NCBI GenBank assembly: GCA_963725665.1
Contig: CAVRZA010000004.1
Coordinates: forward strand, 480,001-544,000
Reading direction: 5' to 3'
Source: an uncultured Actinomycetes bacterium
Lineage (GTDB): Bacteria > Actinomycetota > Thermoleophilia > UBA2241
DNA length: 64,000 bases
Position numbers and translations under genes: made by a program. Below the pieces are notes generated by a model. The model did no database searches. It worked only from the letters and a program-made list of their open reading frames with translations, and was not told where the DNA came from. Shown one piece after another: positions 3 through 15,374 of the stretch (the first letter of the stretch is position 1; each line of letters starts with the position of its first letter).

Positions 3-1355
3 GTGTGGCAGATCGGGATCGTCGTCATCGGGGCTTTTCTCGCTCCCGCTGGTGTCTTCCTATTGAGCCTGTCGGGGATCTGGATGCAGGCCGCCCTGGC
101 GCCGATACTGGCCGGGCGCGCAGGACCCGAGGAGAGCGACGTGGGACCCGGTGCGGCCTCGATGCTCGAGTATCTGGAGGCGCTGCAAAGCTCGCAGACG
201 ACGACTGAGCTGGGTGCCGGCACGGTGGTCTCCAAGGAACCGCCGCCGCAAGAGCGCGCCGCCGGCGGCGCGCAAGCCGTGCCGGGGCTGGGCGTCGTCG
301 GCGACAAGGAGCGCCCGGTGTGGGAGCGCGGTTCGGGCGAGGACGAGCGCCCGGTGTGGGAGCGTGGAGGCGAGGTCACGCCGAGCGAGGCCGCCGTCGC
401 CGGCGGGCTCATCGCGGGTGGCGCGGCGCTCGAGGGTCTTGCCGGCGAACCTGCGGATGAGCTTCTGGGAAGCCAGTGGTTCGTGCACGGCGAACCCATC
501 GTCGATCTGGCCTGTCTGCACCGCGTGGAGCTCGTCGTGCTCGACGACAAGGGCGATGTGACCGTGTATCGCAGAGAGAAGGCCGTGCGCCGCAAGCGCC
601 TGGCCGTCTCGCGGCCGCTCGGCCTGGGCGTGGCTCTCGACGATCACTTGGTCTTGGTCGACGGCGACGGCCGCGTCGTCGAGTTCTCGCTCGCCGAAGA
701 GGACTACGGTGGGGAAGATGCTTCGAGTGGGCGGGCGCACATCGTGCACGCCGGCGTCACCGAGGCCATCGACTGCTTTGCCGTCAGCCCGTCGGGGACG
801 ATGGTCGCCTTCGCGGCCGCGGCGCGGCCGCAGGTCTCCGCCTTCTTCCTGAGCAGCGAGATCACCCGCGTGCTGGCCGACGGCGTCGGGCGGCCGTCGG
901 CCCTCGGCTTCGCCGCCGACGGCCGCCGCCTCGCCGTCGGCACAGCGACCGGCGACGTGCGCATCCTCGATGTGGGTGGGCAGGGAGTGACCGGCGAGCT
1001 GCGCGACAACCGCTTCGCGGGCAGTGCCGTGAGCGCCGTCGCCGGGGCGCGAGACGGCCGCTGGCTGGTGGCTTACGACAACGAGCGCCTGGCACTGTGG
1101 GGCGGCGAAGGAGAGCTGGTGCGCGACATCGACGCCGGGGCTGCTGTGGTCTGCCTCACGGTCGATGAGATCTCGGGCAGCGTCGCCTTTGGGACGTCGC
1201 GCGGTTCGGTGCGCGTCAGCGACACGGACCTGGATGAGGTGCTCGTCGACGGGCGCATGGCGTCCAGCGCCGTCAAGGGCGTCGTGTTCATGGGCACCGG
1301 CAGCGAGATCGTCTGCGCCGGCGCCGGCGGCGAGGTGCGCTACCTGGCGCTGTAG
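3..1355 (+). CDS. Membrane-anchored WD40-like beta-propeller protein (may be 5'-truncated at window edge)
   Basis: Hydrophobic N-terminal segment, then an acidic low-complexity linker, then WD-like blades (IDCFAVSPSGTMVA, ALGFAADGRRLAVGTATGDVRILD, VAFGTSRGSVRVSD, IVCAGAGGEVRY). Confidence 0.7.
   Translation: MWQIGIVVIGAFLAPAGVFLLSLSGIWMQAALAPILAGRAGPEESDVGPGAASMLEYLEALQSSQTTTELGAGTVVSKEPPPQERAAGGAQAVPGLGVVGDKERPVWERGSGEDERPVWERGGEVTPSEAAVAGGLIAGGAALEGLAGEPADELLGSQWFVHGEPIVDLACLHRVELVVLDDKGDVTVYRREKAVRRKRLAVSRPLGLGVALDDHLVLVDGDGRVVEFSLAEEDYGGEDASSGRAHIVHAGVTEAIDCFAVSPSGTMVAFAAAARPQVSAFFLSSEITRVLADGVGRPSALGFAADGRRLAVGTATGDVRILDVGGQGVTGELRDNRFAGSAVSAVAGARDGRWLVAYDNERLALWGGEGELVRDIDAGAAVVCLTVDEISGSVAFGTSRGSVRVSDTDLDEVLVDGRMASSAVKGVVFMGTGSEIVCAGAGGEVRYLAL
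309..364 (+). repeat. 20-bp direct repeat (36-bp period) encoding ERPVWERG twice
   Basis: gagcgcccggtgtgggagcg at 309-328 and 345-364. Confidence 0.85.
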
Positions 1356-1401: not shown

Positions 1402-1773
1402 TCACCACCAACCGATGAGCCCGAGGCCGCGCTGCGCGCAGAGGCCGAAGAAGGCTTGCAGCATGCGGATCTCGTCGGGCGTGGGCGTGTACCGTTCGCC
1501 CAGGTCGAGACCCTCGGTGGCCGTCTCTGGATCGCACTTGGCGATCCGTGCTGCCATCGCGGCCATCGTCTCGGGCGGGATCCATTCCTGGTACAGCGAC
1601 TCCTCGGTGACCTCCATCACGAAGAGGTCGTAGACCTTGCCGCGGATCGAGGCGGCCCCGTCGCTGAACATCCCGCCGCAGAGCTCGATATCCGACTCGG
1701 CGAAGGCTCGCTCGTCCTCGGGTGTGAGGACGACGTCCTCGGGGATGCGCGAGACCAAGTTGTCGAGTCCCAT
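1402..1773 (-). CDS. Hypothetical acidic protein, 123 aa (MGLD...GWW)
   Basis: ATG start with upstream GGAG, GC3-rich codons, same strand as the YbjN-like gene upstream. Confidence 0.75.
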   Translation of the reverse strand: MGLDNLVSRIPEDVVLTPEDERAFAESDIELCGGMFSDGAASIRGKVYDLFVMEVTEESLYQEWIPPETMAAMAARIAKCDPETATEGLDLGERYTPTPDEIRMLQAFFGLCAQRGLGLIGWW

Positions 1774-1857
1774 TTGCGACTCCAGCCCTTCAGCGGGCGG
1801 CCAAGGGTCGAACGCGACGCGAGCCGCTTCTCGTGGCGCGACGAGACATGGAAGACA

Positions 1858-2292
1858 TCACAGCTCGCTGCGCTTCTTGCCGCCCCACTTCTCCTTGATT
1901 TGGTCGTCGTACTGGTTCGTGCTGATGGCCACCAGATGGACGGCGACCTCGAGCTCGGCCTGGTTGAGGAAGTCGCCCAGCAAGGCCTGCTCGAAGTGGA
2001 CCTCCTGGCGCTCGGTGTAGAGGGCCAGCTTGCCGAACAGCAGCTTGGCGTTCTCCTCCGAGAGGAAGATGCCCAAATCGCCGTCGATGCGCATGTCCTT
2101 GTTGCACAACGACTCGACCTTGACCACCGTGCGCCCGTCGGGCAGCTCGCGCGGCATGACGAAGACCTGGACTCCGTCCTCGAACATGAGCACGAAGTCC
2201 TGGTCCATGTCTATCATGTACTTGAGGCCGCAGGCCGTGAGGTAGTTCTTGCAGGTCTCGCGGAGTGCCTTGAGGTGCTCGGAGTCGGTCAC
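1858..2292 (-). CDS. YbjN / type III secretion chaperone-like fold protein
   Basis: 144 aa acidic protein; pattern LSEENAKLLFGKLAL...EVHFEQALLGDFLNQAELEVAV...NQYDDQIKEKWGG resembles YbjN-family proteins; AGGGAG SD upstream of GTG. Confidence 0.7.
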   Translation of the reverse strand: MTDSEHLKALRETCKNYLTACGLKYMIDMDQDFVLMFEDGVQVFVMPRELPDGRTVVKVESLCNKDMRIDGDLGIFLSEENAKLLFGKLALYTERQEVHFEQALLGDFLNQAELEVAVHLVAISTNQYDDQIKEKWGGKKRSEL

Positions 2293-2371
2293 GGTGGTCT
2301 CCCTTCGAGTCGCGTTGATCCGCGCGGCGGGGCCATCTGGCCTCGCGGCACGAGACGATCACGGTGCGCGC

Positions 2372-2815
2372 TCAGTCTGGGCCTTCCAGGTCCCAGCCGC
2401 ACTTGGCGCACCACTTGGCGCCGGGCTTGTTGGTCGCCCGACAATTGGGGTTGCGACAGACGAGGGAGGCGGGGCCGGCGGCCCCGCCTCCCTCGTCTTC
2501 CTGTGCCGCGCTGGTGCTGCATTCGACCAGTAGCACCTCGCTGGCGCCGATCTTGACGATGTTGCCCTGTGACATCTCACGAGTGCCGGTCGCCTGCTCG
2601 CCGTTGAGGGTGAACGTCTCGCCACACGTGAGCTTCACGCCCTCGCTGCCGACCTCGAACGCGACGTCGTCGAAGTCGCCGAGATCGGGCTTCTGCACCG
2701 GAGGCAGGTCGGCAATCTCGCTCCCCAGGCTGACGCCGCCGTGAGCGATCGTGAACGTCAGCCCGTCGTAGGGCCCCGACACGAACTCGAAGCGCGCGTG
2801 CCACTCGCCGCTCAA
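2372..2815 (-). CDS. Degenerate FHA-like domain plus C-terminal zinc ribbon protein
   Basis: SGPYDGLTFTI...VSLG...FTLNG...GNIVKIG follows the FHA beta-strand pattern; C-terminal CRNPNC-x10-CAKCG zinc ribbon; start overlaps the Clp ATPase stop codon. Confidence 0.65.
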   Translation of the reverse strand: MSGEWHARFEFVSGPYDGLTFTIAHGGVSLGSEIADLPPVQKPDLGDFDDVAFEVGSEGVKLTCGETFTLNGEQATGTREMSQGNIVKIGASEVLLVECSTSAAQEDEGGGAAGPASLVCRNPNCRATNKPGAKWCAKCGWDLEGPD

Positions 2816-5262
2816 GGCGCACCTTCCGCGGCTGGCTCCGACGGCTCTGCCGCCGGCCGAGGTACCTTGGCCGGCGGCTCGGCTCCCATGTCGCCGGGTT
2901 CGTTCGCCGGTAGGACGGTGAAGGTCAGCTTGCCGCGCTTCACGCCCAGACGCACACCGTCGTGTTCCCCGAGGGCGCCCTTGAGCAGCTCGTTGGAGAG
3001 GGGCTCGGCCACGAGGTCCTGGATCGCGCGCCGCAACGGTCGGGCGCCCATCGTCTCGTCTTGGTCGTGTTTGACGAGGAAGGCGAGCGCCTTCGCGTCG
3101 GCCTCGACGCGCATCGGCAGTCGAGTGAGCATCAGGCTGGCGATGCGCGCCAGGTCCGCATCGCCCAGGGGGTTGAAGACGATGATCTCGTCGAAGCGAT
3201 TGCGGAACTCGGGCGCGAAGGTGCGCGTCAGGTCCTCTGCTACGGCTGCCTTCACCTCGTCGGCCGTCAGCTTCTCCTTGAGGTCGACCCTGAAGCCGAT
3301 GAAGCGTCGCTTGCCGATGTTGCGCGAGCCCACGTTCGAGGTCATGACGATGACCGCGTTGCGGAAGTCGGCCACCCTGCCCAGCCCGTCGGTGAGTCGG
3401 CCTTCGTCCATCAGCCCGAGTAGCAGCTCGTGCACCGCCGTGTCTGCCTTCTCGAGCTCGTCGAAGAGGACCACCGAGTAGGGGTCGCGACGGATCGCTT
3501 CGGTCAGCATGCCGCCCATCTCGGAGTTGACGTAGCCCGGCGGCGAGCCGATCAGGCGTGAGATGAAGTGCTCGCTGTAGGACTCACTCATGTCGACGCG
3601 GATGAGGCGACTCTCGTCGTCGAAGAGCGCCTCGGCGAGCGACTTGGCGAGCTCCGTCTTGCCCACCCCTGTGGGGCCGAGGAAGAGGAAGCAGCCGATG
3701 GGCCGCATGGGATCGCCGAACGCCGTGCGTGCGGTGCGGATCGACTGCGCCACCGCCGCCACGGCGTGGTCCTGGCCGAGCACCCGATGTCGCAGGATGC
3801 CTTCCAGATCGAGCAGCCGCTCGGCCTCGGTGGCCTTCACCTTGCCCACGGGGATGCGGCGCCAGCTCGAGACCGCCAGCGCGACCTCGTCGGGGCCGAT
3901 CGTCAGCTTGGCGTCCGGCGACGACTCGGCGGTCCTCTCGAACAGCGTCCGCCGTTCCTCCGGCGACAGGTCGCTCAGGTCGAGGTCGCCGAGGCCGAGC
4001 CACTCGCGCATGCGGCTCTCGGCGCAACTGCGGTCGATCAGCTCCAGCGCCTTGTCGGGCAGACGGCGGTCGGTCACGTAGCGGATCGCCAGCTGGACGG
4101 CAGCCCGCAGGGCGTCGTCGGAGATGCTCACGTTGTGGAACTCCTCGTAGCGGGCGCGGAGGCCGGCCAGGATCTCCAGGGTGTCGTCGGCCGTCGGCTC
4201 GGGCACACGGACCATCGCGAAGCGGCGCTCGAGTGCCGGGTCCTTCTCGATGTTCTTGCGGTACTCGTCGTAGGTGGTCGCACCGATGACGGTGATCTCG
4301 CCGCGCGAGAGAGCCGGTTTGAGGATGTTGGCCGCGTCCATTGTGTCGTGCAGGCCGGTCGCGCCGGCGCCGACGAGCATGTGGATCTCGTCGATGAAGA
4401 GGATCAGCGAGGAGTCGTCGCGGGCCTCCTTGATGAGCGCCTGGAGCTTCTCCTCGAGCTGGCCGCGCACGCCGGTGCCGGCGACGATGTTGGCCACTTC
4501 GACCGTGCGGATGCGTTTGCCTTGCAGTTGCGGTGGCACGGTGCCGCGGGCGAGAAGCTGGGCGAGACCCTCGACGATGGCCGTCTTGCCGACGCCCGCC
4601 TCGCCCACCAGCACGGGGTTGTTCTTCTCGCTCTTGCAGAGGACGGAGATGATCTGCAGGAGCTCCATCTGGCGGCCGATGACCGGGCGCAGCTTGCCCT
4701 GCTTCGCGAGCTCGGTGAGGTCGCGGCCGAGCGTCTCCATGAGGTCGCTCGACGAGGCCAATTCGGGCTGTTCGACGGGCGTGCGGCCGCGGTAGGCGCT
4801 CTCCGTCCACTCGTAGGCGGCGATCATGTCGCGGACGGCTTGGGCGACGGCGGCGGGATCCGCGCCCATGCTCCCGAGGGTCCGCACGGGCAGGCTGTTC
4901 TCCTCGGCGAGGATGGCCAGCAGGATGTGGGGCGCCCAGACCACCTCGTCGGTGTTGCCCTCGGGCCGCACGGTGAGGGCGAGTTGCATCGCCGCCTCCA
5001 TGACCCGCTTAGCCCGTGGGGTCATCCCTACGTCGCTCTCCCCGGGGGGACCCTCCTGTCGAGCCGCTTCGCGCACGCGCCGCGCGGCCTCGTCGATGTC
5101 CACGCCGGCGGCGCCGCAGCGCAGGTGGATGTTCCTGTCGTCGAGAGCGACGACGCCCAGGAAGAGGTGCTCGACACCGAGGTGCCGATGGCCGAGTTCG
5201 GTGCGAGCACGCTCGGCGTGCGTTACGGCGAGTGTGGCCGAGTTACCCAGTTCAACGGCCAT
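2812..5262 (-). CDS. ClpA/ClpC-family AAA+ ATPase (Clp protease ATP-binding subunit)
   Basis: Two Clp-N repeats (EHLFLG, PHILLA); NBD1 GEAGVGKT and FIDEIH; NBD2 GPTGVGKT and LFDELEKA; RRLPDKA; GARPLRR; IGF-type ClpP loop (FIGF). Confidence 0.95.
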   Translation of the reverse strand: MAVELGNSATLAVTHAERARTELGHRHLGVEHLFLGVVALDDRNIHLRCGAAGVDIDEAARRVREAARQEGPPGESDVGMTPRAKRVMEAAMQLALTVRPEGNTDEVVWAPHILLAILAEENSLPVRTLGSMGADPAAVAQAVRDMIAAYEWTESAYRGRTPVEQPELASSSDLMETLGRDLTELAKQGKLRPVIGRQMELLQIISVLCKSEKNNPVLVGEAGVGKTAIVEGLAQLLARGTVPPQLQGKRIRTVEVANIVAGTGVRGQLEEKLQALIKEARDDSSLILFIDEIHMLVGAGATGLHDTMDAANILKPALSRGEITVIGATTYDEYRKNIEKDPALERRFAMVRVPEPTADDTLEILAGLRARYEEFHNVSISDDALRAAVQLAIRYVTDRRLPDKALELIDRSCAESRMREWLGLGDLDLSDLSPEERRTLFERTAESSPDAKLTIGPDEVALAVSSWRRIPVGKVKATEAERLLDLEGILRHRVLGQDHAVAAVAQSIRTARTAFGDPMRPIGCFLFLGPTGVGKTELAKSLAEALFDDESRLIRVDMSESYSEHFISRLIGSPPGYVNSEMGGMLTEAIRRDPYSVVLFDELEKADTAVHELLLGLMDEGRLTDGLGRVADFRNAVIVMTSNVGSRNIGKRRFIGFRVDLKEKLTADEVKAAVAEDLTRTFAPEFRNRFDEIIVFNPLGDADLARIASLMLTRLPMRVEADAKALAFLVKHDQDETMGARPLRRAIQDLVAEPLSNELLKGALGEHDGVRLGVKRGKLTFTVLPANEPGDMGAEPPAKVPRPAAEPSEPAAEGAP

Positions 5263-11323: not shown

Positions 11324-11769
11324 GTGCCCTCGGCCGCGTACACCCGCGCCACCGTCTCGTCGCGGGTCTCCTTGGCGCCCAGGCTCGACGACGAGCCGTG
11401 GGACGAGGCGCTGCCGCGGGAGGCGGCGCGGGCGCGGCTCCGCGTAGCCGCAGTCGCGCCCGCAGCCGCCCCCACGCGAAGCCGCCGGCCAAGCTGCTCA
11501 TCTTCGTCGTCTGCCTGGCGCTGCTCGCCGTGGTGCGCATCAGCCTGAGCTTCGCCGTGGTGCAGAAGAACCTGGCGACGACCCGCATCGTGAACGAGCA
11601 GCGCTCGCTGGCGGCCGAGAACTCGCGTCTCGCGGAGGAGGCGGCGACCCTCTCCTCGACGCTGCGCGTGCGCAACCTGGCCGTCGACCAGCTGCACCTG
11701 GCGGCGAGCGGCACCGTGCTCTATCTGCGTGCGCACGGCGGCGCGGGACGACAGAACCGGAGCCGCTAA
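11324..11769 (+). CDS. ftsL: Cell division protein FtsL-like; probable frameshift near 11485
   Basis: Lies between rsmH and ftsI; TM helix followed by a coiled coil (QRSLAAENSRLAEEAATLSS). The SD-preceded GTG at 11324 is in a different frame from the TM part. Confidence 0.65.
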
Positions 11770-13686
11770 TGGCTGGCGGCCGCCGCGACGGGCGCGGCCG
11801 CTCCTCGGCGCCGCCCCCGCGCCGCCGCACGGGGGCCGGCAGCGGCTCGTCACGGCCAGCCACGCGTTCGTCCTCGCGCGCCGGCTCCGCTGGGCAGGGC
11901 CTGCGCTCGTCGCCCTCGCCGCGCTCCGGCCAGCTGTCGTTCGACGACGTACGGGGCGCCGGGGGCGCCGGCGGCCCCAGCGGCGCCGGCGGGGGCCGGT
12001 CGGGCGGGAGGCGGCGCCGGAGCCGGCGGAGCGGCGCCGGCGCCGCCTCGACCGACCGGCGCATTCGGTTTCTGCGGGTCGTCCTCGTCCTCGCCTTCCT
12101 GGCCGTGGGCGGAAAGGCGGTCGCGCTCGCCTCCTCGTCGTCGAACCTGGCCGCCATCGCCGCCCAGCAGCAGTTGCGGAGGATCGTGCTCCCCGCGCCG
12201 CGCGGCGCGATCCTCGACCGCAACGGCGCCGAGCTTGCCGTGGGCAAGCAACAGCGCACCGTCTTTGCCACGCCCTACATGCTCCGTGACCCGCAGGCCG
12301 CCGCACGGCGGCTGGCCCACGTCTTGCGTGTGAAGCGCCGGCCCCTTCTCAAGCAGCTCTCCGATCGCGACAGCGGCTTCGTCTACGTGGCGCGTAAGGC
12401 CGATCCGCAGCTCGCCGACCCGGCGCTGGCGCTCGACCTGCCCGGCGTCGGCGCCTACAGCGAGGAGAAACGCGTCTATCCGATGAAGACCGTGGCGACG
12501 CAGGTGGTGGGGGTGGCCGGCGTCGACAACAAGGGCCTCGAGGGCATCGAGTACCGCTACGACGGGAAGCTCTTGGGACGCGCCGGCAGTGAGGTCGTGG
12601 TGCGCGACCCGGTCGGCCGCGATCTCAAGATCGTCAAGGCGGCGGAGCCGCGGCCGGGCGTGGCCGTGCGGCTGACCATCGACCAGGCCATCCAGTTCAC
12701 GGCCGAGCAGGTACTGGCGACGACGGTGCGCCAGTACCACGCGCGCGGCGCGACGGCCATCGTCGAGAACCCCAAGACCGGGGAGATCTACGCCATGGCG
12801 AACGTGCCTCTCGTCAATGGCAACCAACTCGCCGGCGCGAGCGAGGAAGACCTGCGCAACAAGGCTGTGACGACGATCTACGAGCCGGGATCGACGTTCA
12901 AGACGATCACCGTGGCCGGCTGTCTCGAGGACGGGCTCGTGCGCCCTTCGACCCGCTTGCGCATCCCCTCCTCGCTGCTCGTCGCCGACCGCGTGATCCA
13001 CGAGGCCCACCCGCACCCGACGGAGTGGTTCACCGTACGCCGCATCGTGGCCGAGTCGAGCAACGTCGGCGCGGTAAGGCTGGGTCAGCAGCTCGGGGCC
13101 AGAACGGCTCCTCAGGTGGATCAGGGCCTTCGGTTTCGGCAAGGCCACCGGTATGGACTTCCCCGGGGAGGTCGCCGGCGCCGTGCTGCCGCTGCGGCGC
13201 TGGTCGGGATCGACCATCGGCAACGTCCCCATGGGGCAGGGCATCGCGGTGACGCCGATCCAGATGGCGGCCGCGTACTCCACGGTGGCCAACGACGGTG
13301 TCTGGGTGCAGCCGCATCTCGTCCTGCAGGTGGGCGGCGCCACGACGCCGGCGCCCAAGACCAGCCGCGTCATCTCGGCGACCACCGCGCGGCAGCTCGC
13401 CTCGATGCTGAGCGACGCCGTCTCGGTCGGCACCGGCACCAACGCGCGCATCCCCGGTTACGTCGTCGCCGGCAAGACCGGCACCGCCCAGAAGGCGATC
13501 CCCGGCGGCTACTCGACGACACGCTACGTCGCCTCGTTCGTCGGCTTCGTGCCGGCGCGCAAGCCCCAGCTGGTCGTGCTCGTGGTCGTCGACGAGCCCT
13601 CGGCCCACTTCGGGGGCGTCGTCGCCGCCCCGGCGTTCGAGAAGATCGCCAGCTTCGCCCTGCAGCACCTCGAGATCGCGCCCTAG
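11769..13686 (+). CDS. ftsI: Septal class B penicillin-binding protein; extra G near 13095-13098
   Basis: RGAILDRNG, GLEGIE, EPGSTFK (SxxK), SSNVG (SxN) and, in the shifted frame, GQGIAVTPIQMA and GKTGTAQ. Confidence 0.92.
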
Positions 13687-13734
13687 GCTGCCCTCGCCGT
13701 GTCGGCCGGCTTTCGCGAGAGGGGAGGCAGGCTT

Positions 13735-13743
13735 TGGTAGAAT
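13735..13743 (+). promoter_or_regulatory. Extended -10 (TGG-TAGAAT), internal promoter before murE
   Basis: Near-consensus TGnTANNNT 8 nt upstream of ATG 13752; no SD between. Confidence 0.55.
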
Positions 13744-13751
13744 CGCGCCGC

Positions 13752-15374
13752 ATGGACGTGGCATCCCTCCAGGCCGTGGTCTCTGACGCGACGGTCGTCG
13801 GTGACCCGGCGACCGAGGTCGCGTCGCTCGCCTACGACAGCCGGCGCGTGACCCCCGGCGCCCTGTTCTTCTGCGTCCCCGGCGTCAGCGTCGACGGGCA
13901 CGAGTTCGCCTCCAAGGCGGCGGCCGGGGGGGCGGTCGCCCTCGTTGTGGAGCACCGGCTCGAGATCGCGGTGACCCAGGTCCTGGTGCCCTCGGTCCGG
14001 CGCGCCATGGCGCTCATGTCGGCGCGCTTCTTCGGCGACCCGACCACGAAGCTGCGTGTGGTCGGTGTGACGGGGACGAACGGCAAGACGACCACGGCCC
14101 ACCTCGCGGCGCAGATCCTCGACGCGGCCGGGCTGCGGCCGGCGCTCCTCGGCACCGTCGTCAACCGCATCGGCGGTGAAGAGACGCCGGTGACGCTCAC
14201 GACGGCCGAGTCGTGCGACCTGCAGGCAATGTTCGCCGGGATGGTACGCGCGGGCGATCTGAGCTGCGCCATGGAGGCCTCCTCGCACGCGCTCGCCCTG
14301 GAGCGCGTGACCGGCATCGAGTTCGCCGCCGTGGTGTTCACCAACCTGACGCGCGATCACCTCGACTTCCACAGCGACATCGACGACTACTTCCTCGCCA
14401 AGCGCCGCTTGTTCTTGCCCGACGGCGGACGTCAGCCGCGCGCGGTCGCCGTCGTCAACGTCGGCGACGCCCACGGCCGGCGCCTCGCCGGCGAGTGTCG
14501 CGTGCCGTACGGAGACGACCTCTGGACCTTCGCCGTGCGCTCCTCGGGCGGCGAACACGTCCCCGCGAGTGGCGCGGCGCGCGGCGCGGCTACCAAGGAG
14601 GCGGCAGTGGCCGGTGCGACGGCCACGGCCGACGCGACGGCCACAGCCGACGACCTCGATCTGCGTGGCGACGGCTCGTCGTTCACGCTGCGCGTGCCGC
14701 GCCTCGGGATCGCGCGCCGCGTCGAGATGCGTCTGGCGGCGCACTTCAACGTGGCCAACGGGCTCGCCGCCGCGACGGCCGGGCTCGCCATCGGTCTGCC
14801 GCTCGGCGCCGTCGTGGAAGGTCTCGAGTCGACGGCCGGCGTGCCCGGCCGCTTCGAGGCCGTGCGCGCCGGCCAGCCGTTCACCGTCCTGGTCGACTAC
14901 TCGCACACGCCCGACTCGCTCGAGAACGCGCTGCAGGCGGCCCGCGGCGTGGCCGCGGGCCGCCTGCTGTGCGTCTTCGGCTGCGGCGGCGACCGCGACC
15001 GCGGCAAGCGGCCCCTGATGGGCGAGGTCGCTTCGCGCCTGGCCGATCTCGCCATCGTGACCTCCGACAACCCGCGTACCGAGGATCCCCTGGCCATCAT
15101 CGAGCAGATCCGCGCCGGCGTGCACCCCGAGAGGACCATCGTGGAACCCGATCGCCGGGCGGCGATCGAGCTTGCCGTAGAAGAGGCCCTCACCGGCGAT
15201 GTCGTGCTCATCGCCGGCAAAGGACACGAACGCGGACAGATCATCGGGGGCGAGAAGATCCCCTTCGACGACCGCGAGGTCGCGCTCGAGGCTCTGCGTC
15301 GCGCGGGGTACGGCGTAGCCGATGCGGCGCCCGGTGCGGGCGACGGTCGCGCCCGCGAGCGGAGCGGATCGTGA
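13752..15374 (+). CDS. murE: UDP-MurNAc-dipeptide--diaminopimelate ligase
   Basis: GVTGTNGKTTT, MEASSH, FTNLTRDHLDFH, VDYSHTPD, GCGGDRDRGKR, DNPR (DAP-type) and AGKGHE. Confidence 0.96.
   Translation: MDVASLQAVVSDATVVGDPATEVASLAYDSRRVTPGALFFCVPGVSVDGHEFASKAAAGGAVALVVEHRLEIAVTQVLVPSVRRAMALMSARFFGDPTTKLRVVGVTGTNGKTTTAHLAAQILDAAGLRPALLGTVVNRIGGEETPVTLTTAESCDLQAMFAGMVRAGDLSCAMEASSHALALERVTGIEFAAVVFTNLTRDHLDFHSDIDDYFLAKRRLFLPDGGRQPRAVAVVNVGDAHGRRLAGECRVPYGDDLWTFAVRSSGGEHVPASGAARGAATKEAAVAGATATADATATADDLDLRGDGSSFTLRVPRLGIARRVEMRLAAHFNVANGLAAATAGLAIGLPLGAVVEGLESTAGVPGRFEAVRAGQPFTVLVDYSHTPDSLENALQAARGVAAGRLLCVFGCGGDRDRGKRPLMGEVASRLADLAIVTSDNPRTEDPLAIIEQIRAGVHPERTIVEPDRRAAIELAVEEALTGDVVLIAGKGHERGQIIGGEKIPFDDREVALEALRRAGYGVADAAPGAGDGRARERSGS

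Follow-up and report, generated by a model that had tools for sequence, protein, structure and literature searches.

We examined a window of 64,000 nucleotides (G000:C4:480001-544000) from the genome of an uncultured soil actinobacterium, in which four minus-strand genes at positions 1402 to 5262 form a cassette around a ClpC-derived AAA+ ATPase. Our reading, to which we give a probability of roughly 0.55, is that this cassette encodes a specialised accessory unfoldase derived from ClpC together with private partner proteins, and that it lies within a conflict-type island, immune or programmed-death-like in character. The genome (G000; 3.7 Mb in 12 contigs, 97.5% complete with 5.0% contamination) has close relatives of its genes in metagenome-assembled genomes of Thermoleophilia. 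The four genes of the cassette, with the evidence on which each description rests, are as follows.

2812..5262, minus strand: ClpC-derived AAA+ ATPase, 816 amino acids (Pfam, NCBIfam, alignments and tree)
2372..2815, minus strand: partner protein with an FHA fold and a four-cysteine zinc ribbon, 147 amino acids (AlphaFold2 model, fold matches and family alignment)
1858..2292, minus strand: YbjN/TY-Chap1 protein, type III secretion chaperone-like, 144 amino acids (Pfam)
1402..1773, minus strand: "MGLD" protein, acidic and stand-alone, 123 amino acids (family profile and structure model)

An earlier note on this DNA, made from the sequence alone, had described four co-directional genes with a 4-bp overlap followed by gaps of about 80 bp, and this arrangement was confirmed. 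The stop codon TGA of the ATPase gene and the start codon TTG of the next gene share the bases TTGA, and the other intergenic gaps measure 79 bp and 84 bp. The third-position GC content of each cassette gene is high (0.87–0.95), and the starts are preceded by Shine-Dalgarno-like purine runs. Neither gap contains a terminator-like site on the minus strand; the region as a whole has 2 such sites, where 1.3 are expected.

The computations show that the ATPase is a distinct accessory paralogue derived from ClpC. Its paralogues in the same genome are two near-identical canonical ClpC proteins on contigs C3 and C6 and one ClpB-like protein on contig C2, which groups with E. coli ClpB at a support of 95 in the Shimodaira-Hasegawa-like approximate likelihood ratio test (SH-aLRT); the genome has one ClpP gene. 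The canonical pair is located as follows.

G000:C3:21546-24116 and G000:C6:419831-422389: canonical ClpC pair with a full middle domain (M-domain) and a PLGF loop

The occurrence of this near-identical pair on separate contigs could reflect a genuine duplication, or else the contamination (5%) or mixing of strains reported for the genome. In a quick maximum-likelihood tree of 19 rows calculated with IQ-TREE, whose deeper order is unsafe owing to long branches, the window ATPase and three relatives form a clade of their own (SH-aLRT 100), apart from seven ClpC proteins of the class, which also form a clade (SH-aLRT 100). Of 401 genomes of the class, 6 contain matches of 44–80% identity to residues 1–200 of the ATPase, and every other match, including those to the ClpC proteins of the class, is at most 36% identical. 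The six genomes with an N-domain at orthologue level are G000, G303, G005, G023 (with two loci), G014 and G008. The earlier note had held that its proposal of a dedicated unfoldase would fail if the ATPase were the only clpC of the genome and clustered with ordinary ClpC orthologues; because canonical ClpC lies elsewhere and the ATPase clusters apart, the proposal stands on this point.

The domain content of the ATPase is that of a two-ring Clp protein. Pfam finds Clp_N, two AAA modules (AAA and AAA_2), AAA_lid_9 and ClpB_D2-small. Clp_N scores 37.1 bits (cut-off 20.7) and appears in Pfam as a single stretch at residues 111–147, the first Clp_N repeat being visible only by alignment. The features located on the ATPase are listed below.

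Residues 1–158, nucleotides 4789–5262, minus strand: N-domain (alignment)
Residues 220–227 and 287–294, minus strand: Walker A and Walker B of the first ring, D1 (motif positions)
Residues 529–536 and 597–604, minus strand: Walker A and Walker B of the second ring, D2 (motif positions)
Residues 264–267, minus strand: D1 pore loop GVRG, which is KYRG in ClpC, ClpA and ClpB
Residues 574–578, minus strand: D2 pore loop, in which GYV is kept (motif positions)
Residues 654–657, nucleotides 3292–3303, minus strand: ClpP-type loop FIGF, which aligns with the PLGF loop of ClpC from the same genome

The Walker motifs are intact. The alignments show that the M-domain is missing: the ATPase has about 28–30 residues fewer than the ClpC proteins of the same genome and of the class, with a short linker in their place, and no UVR-type family appeared among the best 25 of 49 Pfam families. 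At the position of the ClpP-type loop the accessory subfamily has FIGF, FLGL or FGF, and the ClpB-like paralogue of the same genome lacks such a loop. All NCBIfam scores fell under their cut-offs (ClpB 719.5 against 1232, ClpA 649.2 against 993, ClpV1, TIGR03345, 612.1 against 885). Among solved chains, ClpC of B. subtilis (620 bits) scores best, followed by ClpC of S. aureus (584 bits) and ClpC1 of M. tuberculosis (574 bits), then by ClpB (553 bits) and ClpA (472 bits). In PADLOC 2.0 only the D2 module matches, to the single-ring proteins PDC-M37B and DolB.

Contig C16 of genome G023 (L015 and L041) carries the accessory ATPase twice. One copy is collinear with FHA-like and YbjN-like genes and is broken by frame changes; the other, 51% identical, is accompanied by a YbjN-like gene only, keeps the D1 pore-loop tyrosine and has a leucine where the D2 tyrosine would be. 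The lack of a tyrosine in the D1 pore loop was considered as a mark of the whole subfamily and rejected, since the second copy retains this residue and has lost the D2 tyrosine instead.

The gene that overlaps the end of the ATPase gene encodes the 147-residue partner protein, which is divided as follows.

Residues 1–102, nucleotides 2510–2815, minus strand: FHA-fold domain (AlphaFold2 model)
Residues 103–115, minus strand: low-confidence linker (AlphaFold2 model)
C120, C125, C136 and C139, nucleotides 2375–2464, minus strand: C-terminal four-cysteine zinc ribbon (family alignment)

In the family alignment, the stretch F-E-x-V-x-G-P-x-D-G-x-T-F and the pair N71-G72 are invariant, and the cysteines follow the pattern C-x4-C-x10-C-x2-C. 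Pfam returns zinc-ribbon matches only, all of them sub-threshold, and no match to FHA (PF00498) at E ≤ 0.1. The AlphaFold2 model, made from 7 sequences, is a beta sandwich of modest confidence, with a predicted local distance difference test score (pLDDT) of 71.9 overall and of 84–92 over residues 51–100. Nearly all of the 50 rows of VIA matches to this model are FHA domains, of which GarA is the best (Z 8.3, root-mean-square deviation (rmsd) 3.1, 83 residues aligned) and the FHA domain of DgcB reaches Z 8.0; 47 chains have Z of at least 5. Foldseek gives FHA matches with a probability of 1.00 and E of 0.0099–0.1, the top match being the type III secretion protein 4d9v_B. FHA domains bind phosphothreonine through Gly-Arg and Ser-x-x-His, and their consensus also has an Asn-Gly turn. 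When positions were matched by eye in the family alignment, neither the Arg that would follow strand 3 nor the Ser/His motif was conserved, and N71-G72 alone was invariant. The earlier description of this protein as a degenerate FHA domain plus a zinc ribbon is right, because the phosphothreonine-binding residues are not conserved. The FHA/zinc-ribbon gene is confined to a few Thermoleophilia: a word-based search with the protein returned six proteins, the query included, and a homologue was present in 3 of 40 relatives.

Three lines of evidence support a tie between the 147-residue protein and the Clp N-domain, namely the overlapping start codon, a fusion in genome G014 and a predicted complex. 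The fusion frame is located as follows.

L014:9428-10333, plus strand: open frame of 302 codons with Clp_N (33.7 bits) and an FHA-like domain

This frame has neither AAA modules nor a zinc ribbon, and its Clp_N is 50% identical to the N-domain of the accessory ATPase; it could be a natural fusion or the remnant of an in-frame deletion. A homologue of the island AAA protein described below lies 9 kb downstream of it. Complex modelling of the Clp N-domain with each small protein had been proposed beforehand, and in it the 147-residue protein scored 0.73, 0.73 and 0.75 with the N-domain, the best control scoring 0.00. The mark used is attained by 116 of 157 solved complexes and by 2 of 215 mismatched pairs, counts that apply only roughly here because the model was built from shallow alignments of 6 and 7 rows. 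The runs share at least 59% of their contacts, and the pLDDT of the partner is 67. The modelled contacts would join partner residues 10–19 to N-domain residues 26–31, 81–86 and 122–127, and both sides include invariant positions. For the proposed dedicated adaptor, the predicted docking on the N-domain and the G014 frame speak in its favour, and the interpretation as a whole is partly supported.

The YbjN-like protein is the most constant partner of the ATPase subfamily. It passes the Pfam cut-offs for TY-Chap1 (32.5 bits, cut-off 27) and YbjN (22.9 bits, cut-off 22), and its relatives score 29–46 bits. The order ATPase, FHA-like, YbjN-like is found in G005 (locus L017), G303 (locus L019), G023 and the metagenome locus L052; the second G023 locus and G008 have a YbjN-like gene followed by the ATPase gene, without the FHA-like gene. 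A metagenome scan seeded with the YbjN-like protein gave 15 loci, and a Clp gene directly adjoins the seed in 14 of these, the remaining one being a contig of 1.5 kb. These Clp genes are closer to the accessory subfamily than to ClpC of the window genome. In the same 15 loci, an FHA-like gene was counted once, an MGLD gene once and a TrkA_N-RyR homologue five times, and a homologue of a 174-residue SLOG-like protein lay just upstream in six. Ten of these loci are not independent, because their ATPases are about 78–89% identical to the second G023 copy. The conserved core is the YbjN-like chaperone plus the ATPase, often with SLOG-like and TrkA_N-RyR genes that lie beyond positions 1402–5262. 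Thus, the co-occurrence expected by the earlier note was found, with the ATPase recurring beside small proteins in G005, G303, G023 and the YbjN-seeded loci. The idea of a self-contained four-gene system did not hold: the cassette marks one end of an island of roughly 30 kb, and the conserved core extends outside the cassette.

The MGLD protein, which had been taken for an orphan, belongs to an unnamed family. Its relatives number 109 in a database clustered at 90% identity, one of which, from Roseiflexus, is named only "hypothetical protein", and a search with its profile gives 579 representative clusters at E ≤ 0.001, of which 309 reach E ≤ 1e-10; almost all of the clusters are 105–150 residues long and align from residue 1. 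The residues M1-G2-L3-D4, R9, D20, S42, R44, G45, Y48, W64, P67, C112 and G118 are invariant in an alignment of 29 rows, and the isoelectric point of the window protein is 4.11. Nothing above noise was found in Pfam, NCBIfam, PHROGs or PADLOC. No fused form was found among proteins of 260–2000 residues, which is weak evidence, as the search used a word-sharing score on 8000 candidates. Structure prediction gives a confident model (pLDDT 91.7) of a compact fold, for which there is no solved structure at Z 5 in VIA or E 0.001 in Foldseek. The best solved matches are DMP12 and YfbM (Foldseek E 0.023, probability 0.91; VIA Z 4.1, rmsd 3.8–3.9, 86–97 residues aligned); in a protein atlas the DMP12 cluster scores 0.89 with MGLD, and two of the top three clusters there are labelled viral. 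Two uncharacterised viral proteins in BFVD match the model at E 1.7e-5 and 6.2e-5. The following further members of the family were located.

G000:C4:468772-469138, minus strand: MGLD paralogue split across two frames
L042:363-680 and L043:2944-3249: MGLD relatives among phage genes in IMG/VR contigs

The phage genes around the latter pair encode a DnaB-like helicase, an HNH endonuclease, a polynucleotide kinase and a methyltransferase-like protein. One of these contigs carries both the DnaB-like helicase and the HNH endonuclease, and the other an array of small genes with the polynucleotide kinase and an endonuclease. The window genome has two further MGLD copies, 5 and 12 kb left of the cassette, one of which is the split paralogue listed above, and there are five copies in L017 and four in L019. 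MGLD stands in the same gene string as the ATPase in the window genome, L017, L019 and L035, last in the former and first in the three relatives. We conclude that MGLD is linked to the ATPase at the level of the island and not always in the operon.

A genome scan seeded with MGLD, using an alignment of 8 rows, gave 21 loci from Actinomycetota, Chloroflexota, Gemmatimonadota and other phyla. The loci were compared by tblastn; 244 open reading frames were called, of which 88, from 13 loci, were scanned with Pfam. A Clp-like two-ring ATPase without an M-domain lies within 10 kb in 8 of the 21 loci, one more has an ordinary ClpC, and WD40 genes are present in 12. The Pfam-scanned loci include YbjN/TY-Chap1 in 6 of 13, RelA_SpoT (with SLOG and/or RyR) in 5, NUDIX in 4 and a DUF4062-STAND NTPase in 4. 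In two Chloroflexota loci, MGLD has a DUF3037 gene and a HipA_2 kinase gene as its immediate neighbours (L021:10823-12191 and L028:10921-12613). The distant MGLD-linked ATPases are 30–37% identical to the window ATPase. A single clade for all MGLD-linked ATPases was considered and is not shown by the tree, in which the distant ones fall outside the clade of the window ATPase on branches of 3.9–4.3 changes per site.

The island extends left from the cassette to a UvrD-type helicase (C4:452846-455239), and its genes agree with the conflict or defence setting that had been proposed, since the neighbours include TIR, VIT-vWA, AAA-RyR, Cap2-like E1 and WD40 proteins. The island genes located are listed below.

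3..1355 of the window, plus strand: C-terminal beta-propeller-like part of an 834-residue membrane protein (sub-threshold WD40/beta-propeller matches only)
L016:16790-18772: TrkA_N-RyR protein, 660 amino acids
Left of the window: SLOG-like gene, 174 amino acids (sub-threshold YpsA, cpYpsA and YAcAr matches, E 0.008–0.06)
L016:10947-12680: TIR protein, 577 amino acids
Left of the window: TIR protein other than the 577-residue one (Pfam/PADLOC scan)
Left of the window: protein with a TIR-like stretch
G000:C4:468009-468752 (L016:8009-8752): ThiF protein, a Cap2-like E1 (CBASS E1-E2 models, E 1e-33)
L038:16824-19190 and L038:19433-19999 joined to L016:3-1640, minus strand: VIT-vWA protein and adjoining AAA-RyR protein
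Left of the window: two WD40 proteins, membrane proteins and MGLD copies

The gene for the 834-residue protein, which has its start 1150 bases outside the left end of the window, is convergent with the MGLD gene and is the next member of the island. The SLOG-like and TrkA_N-RyR genes lie 3–6 kb from the cassette. A search among solved structures returned nothing for the 174-residue protein, and we keep the label "SLOG-like". In the TrkA_N-RyR protein, the 170 N-terminal residues that precede the RCK-type TrkA_N domain look, when judged by eye, like two membrane helices flanking a stretch that resembles a pore loop, and Pfam gives no match to a channel family; its make-up suggests a ligand-gated channel-like effector. 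Residues ~290–575 of the 577-residue TIR protein belong to no Pfam family; this part recurs on its own in L018 and L051 and as a fusion with WD40 repeats in L021 and L028. The ThiF protein matches the C-terminal two thirds of the CBASS E1-E2 models, and the preceding 1.6 kb, in which no gene was called, may encode the missing E2-like part. The AAA protein beside VIT-vWA has weak MoxR/torsin-like matches and a C-terminal RyR domain, and the two together resemble the MoxR-vWA pairs described for conflict systems. Housekeeping genes follow directly on the right flank (enoyl-CoA hydratase, trehalose phosphatase, pyrF-like, LysM, mraZ, rsmH and the dcw cluster, which begins 4.6 kb right of the cassette). 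Here a plus-strand frame of 1201 codons (window 11769-15374) carries the dimerisation and transpeptidase domains of a penicillin-binding protein ahead of Mur ligase domains, and is either an FtsI-MurE fusion or two genes joined by an assembly indel.

Taken as a specialised unfoldase with private partners, the cassette is probably a switch of regulated unfolding or degradation for the island. Its motifs suggest that the ATPase would act as a two-ring AAA+ machine feeding substrates to the single ClpP of the genome. MecA-type control is unlikely because the M-domain of ClpC has been lost, and ClpP is the most likely recipient because the docking loop for it has been kept; we infer the coupling from this three-residue loop and from the presence of ClpP. 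The 147-residue protein would be an adaptor or a gate that contacts the N-domain by way of its invariant G-P-x-D-G loop, as the model, the fusion and the translational coupling suggest. The YbjN/TY-Chap1 protein, judged by its family and its near-constant adjacency to the ATPase gene, may be a peptide-binding co-chaperone that presents or holds the client. The client may be a component of the island, for example the TrkA_N-RyR membrane protein or the MGLD proteins in the role of inhibitors or decoys; unfolding or degradation of the client might set the threshold for release of the island effectors (TIR and membrane proteins). We infer this co-chaperone role, the identity of the client and the immune function of the whole. 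Regulated proteolysis and ClpV-like disassembly had both been suggested for such an unfoldase, and the ClpP-type loop favours the former over the latter.

A wider form of this reading is possible, though we consider it doubtful. It would make the genes part of an undescribed multi-component immune system of filamentous or soil bacteria. The conserved core of this system would consist of an unfoldase that lacks the M-domain and is coupled to ClpP, a co-chaperone resembling type III chaperones, a SLOG-like ligand sensor and a membrane effector of the RCK(TrkA_N)-RyR type. The MGLD protein, shared with phages, would be an inhibitor or decoy, and the system would become armed when this protein is unfolded or degraded; the FHA-fold/zinc-ribbon protein would represent a new class of Clp N-domain adaptor, in which an acidic loop replaces the phospho-degron.

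Several results weigh against the specialised-unfoldase reading as a whole. A single system across phyla is not established, because the distant ATPases sit outside the clade of the window ATPase, and two of these distant proteins have degenerate Walker motifs in D2. The pore loops are unusual, the aromatic residue being absent from D1 in the type found in the window and from D2 in that of the second G023 copy, which could mean weak or altered threading; the reading of the ClpP loop depends on a three-residue motif, and the confidence of the FHA-like model is modest. A search of sequencing runs listed 20 rows, all of them DNA contigs and none RNA, the best of which contained 0.24 of the sampled words. 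Most of the supporting loci come from related Thermoleophilia or from near-identical metagenome contigs and are not independent. The tie of MGLD to the ATPase is loose, because MGLD occurs in only one of the YbjN-seeded loci, though many of these contigs are short. There is no tRNA within 52 kb, no integrase family was found among the island and flank genes scanned with Pfam, and none of the three small cassette proteins matches a defence model of PADLOC 2.0.

This last result would also be expected if the genes formed a non-immune circuit, in which the unfoldase and chaperone control the turnover or assembly of the TrkA_N(RCK)-RyR membrane protein when the SLOG-like and Rossmann domains sense a nucleotide ligand, for signalling or ion homeostasis and not for defence. 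We regard such a circuit as unlikely, yet as the most serious alternative. The tightest recurring string is SLOG-like, (TrkA_N-RyR), YbjN, ATPase, with the counts given above for the YbjN-seeded loci, and both of the additional genes lie close to the cassette in the window genome. However, the sporadic distribution within the class, the setting among TIR, STAND NTPase, WD40, RelA_SpoT/NUDIX and toxin-antitoxin-like genes, and the MGLD relatives on phage contigs are harder to reconcile with a regulatory role, and the SLOG assignment is sub-threshold.

The remaining explanations are weak. That the ATPase is an ordinary stress-response ClpC paralogue whose neighbours are incidental would fit its closest solved relatives, which are all ClpC, its intact Walker motifs and the proximity of the dcw cluster; we nevertheless consider it improbable in view of the separate canonical ClpC, the separate clade, the rarity in the class, the loss of the M-domain and the finding of the same neighbours from three different seed genes. 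More improbable still is a ClpV-like or type III-like machine for export or disassembly, in which the FHA protein and the type III-type chaperone would serve the secretion of MGLD or of other effectors. FHA proteins cooperate with Clp-family ATPases in type VI secretion, and type III secretion chaperones pass effectors to an ATPase, and the top Foldseek match of the FHA model is in line with such a role. However, the score for ClpV1 is far under its cut-off, no secretion-system family, type VI included, was found among the Pfam-scanned island and flank genes over about 45 kb, and MGLD is predicted to be a compact folded protein. ClpV is not known to have the ClpP-type loop that is present here.

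Clp unfoldases are generally regarded as housekeeping machines for which only a few adaptors are known. The accessory ATPase looks like a private unfoldase that has been recruited into an immune-type island, and its partner is a candidate for a new type of adaptor, with an FHA fold that lacks the phosphopeptide-binding residues and is predicted to sit on the Clp N-domain. The near-constant pairing of the unfoldase with a type III-chaperone-like protein, and the link to a sizeable unnamed family carried by phages, add to its interest. If the reading is true, the idea that chaperones set the threshold of bacterial immunity would extend to Clp/ClpP proteolysis, and testable partners would be at hand for MGLD, for bacterial RyR-domain proteins and for actinobacterial YbjN-like proteins, families without known function. 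A full-text search of the literature, whose coverage of SLOG, RelA_SpoT and NUDIX neighbourhoods was partial, found no description of this gene set.

Among known systems, Kaur et al. 2020 (PMC7159879) describe chaperone/co-chaperone "thresholding" pairs in conflict systems, MoxR-vWA ternary systems and TRIP13-HORMA. The cassette resembles the thresholding pairs in joining an AAA+ ATPase to a peptide-binding partner amid TIR, WD40, STAND and vWA genes in bacteria of multicellular type, and the island AAA-RyR gene beside the VIT-vWA gene resembles the MoxR-vWA pairs (PMC7159879). Here, however, the ATPase is of the Clp type and the co-chaperone is TY-Chap1/YbjN, and the passages of that paper on Clp, YbjN, RyR, TrkA and DUF4062 contain no such system. 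PMC9503650 describes TY-Chap1 chaperones of systems centred on ADP-ribosylglycohydrolase; our 144-residue protein resembles these, and class I chaperones of type III secretion, in scoring above the TY-Chap1 and YbjN cut-offs, but no ADP-ribosylglycohydrolase gene was found among the island genes scanned, and the term "Clp" is absent from that paper.

DMP12 and YfbM are the best solved matches of the MGLD model and, like MGLD, are acidic, but the fold scores are in the range of chance and there is no sequence similarity. We know of no counterpart in DMP12 or YfbM to the invariant N-terminal MGLD. Mycobacterial ClpC2 is a stand-alone copy of the ClpC1 N-domain, and the G014 protein is similar in keeping a Clp N-domain without AAA+ modules; it differs in being fused to an FHA-like domain and in being related to the accessory ATPase, not to ClpC. 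The pairing of ClpS with ClpA shares with the cassette a small partner gene that abuts the unfoldase gene, binding to the N-domain (here predicted) and the absence of a full M-domain, as in ClpA. In E. coli K-12 clpS directly precedes clpA, whereas the order here is reversed, the partner gene overlapping the unfoldase gene on its downstream side; instead of the ClpS fold, the partner has a predicted FHA fold together with a zinc ribbon, and the ATPase scores lower with ClpA than with ClpC. The systems of ClpC with MecA and with McsA/McsB are alike in having a small partner, which in our case is predicted to lie on the N-domain. McsA carries a zinc-binding module, as does the 147-residue partner, but the latter has a predicted FHA fold and resembles neither MecA nor McsA. 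The closest likeness is to ClpC and ClpC1 themselves, which are class I Hsp100 proteins found in Firmicutes and Actinobacteria; it lies in Clp_N, the two AAA+ rings, the D2-small domain, the [LIVF]-G-[FL] loop at the ClpP-docking position and the best solved match; the accessory ATPase differs from them in having no M-domain and no D1 pore-loop tyrosine, in its separate clade and in being rare and island-borne. The known kind to which the cassette belongs is the Clp unfoldase with its adaptors, to which three component families of unknown function are attached here.

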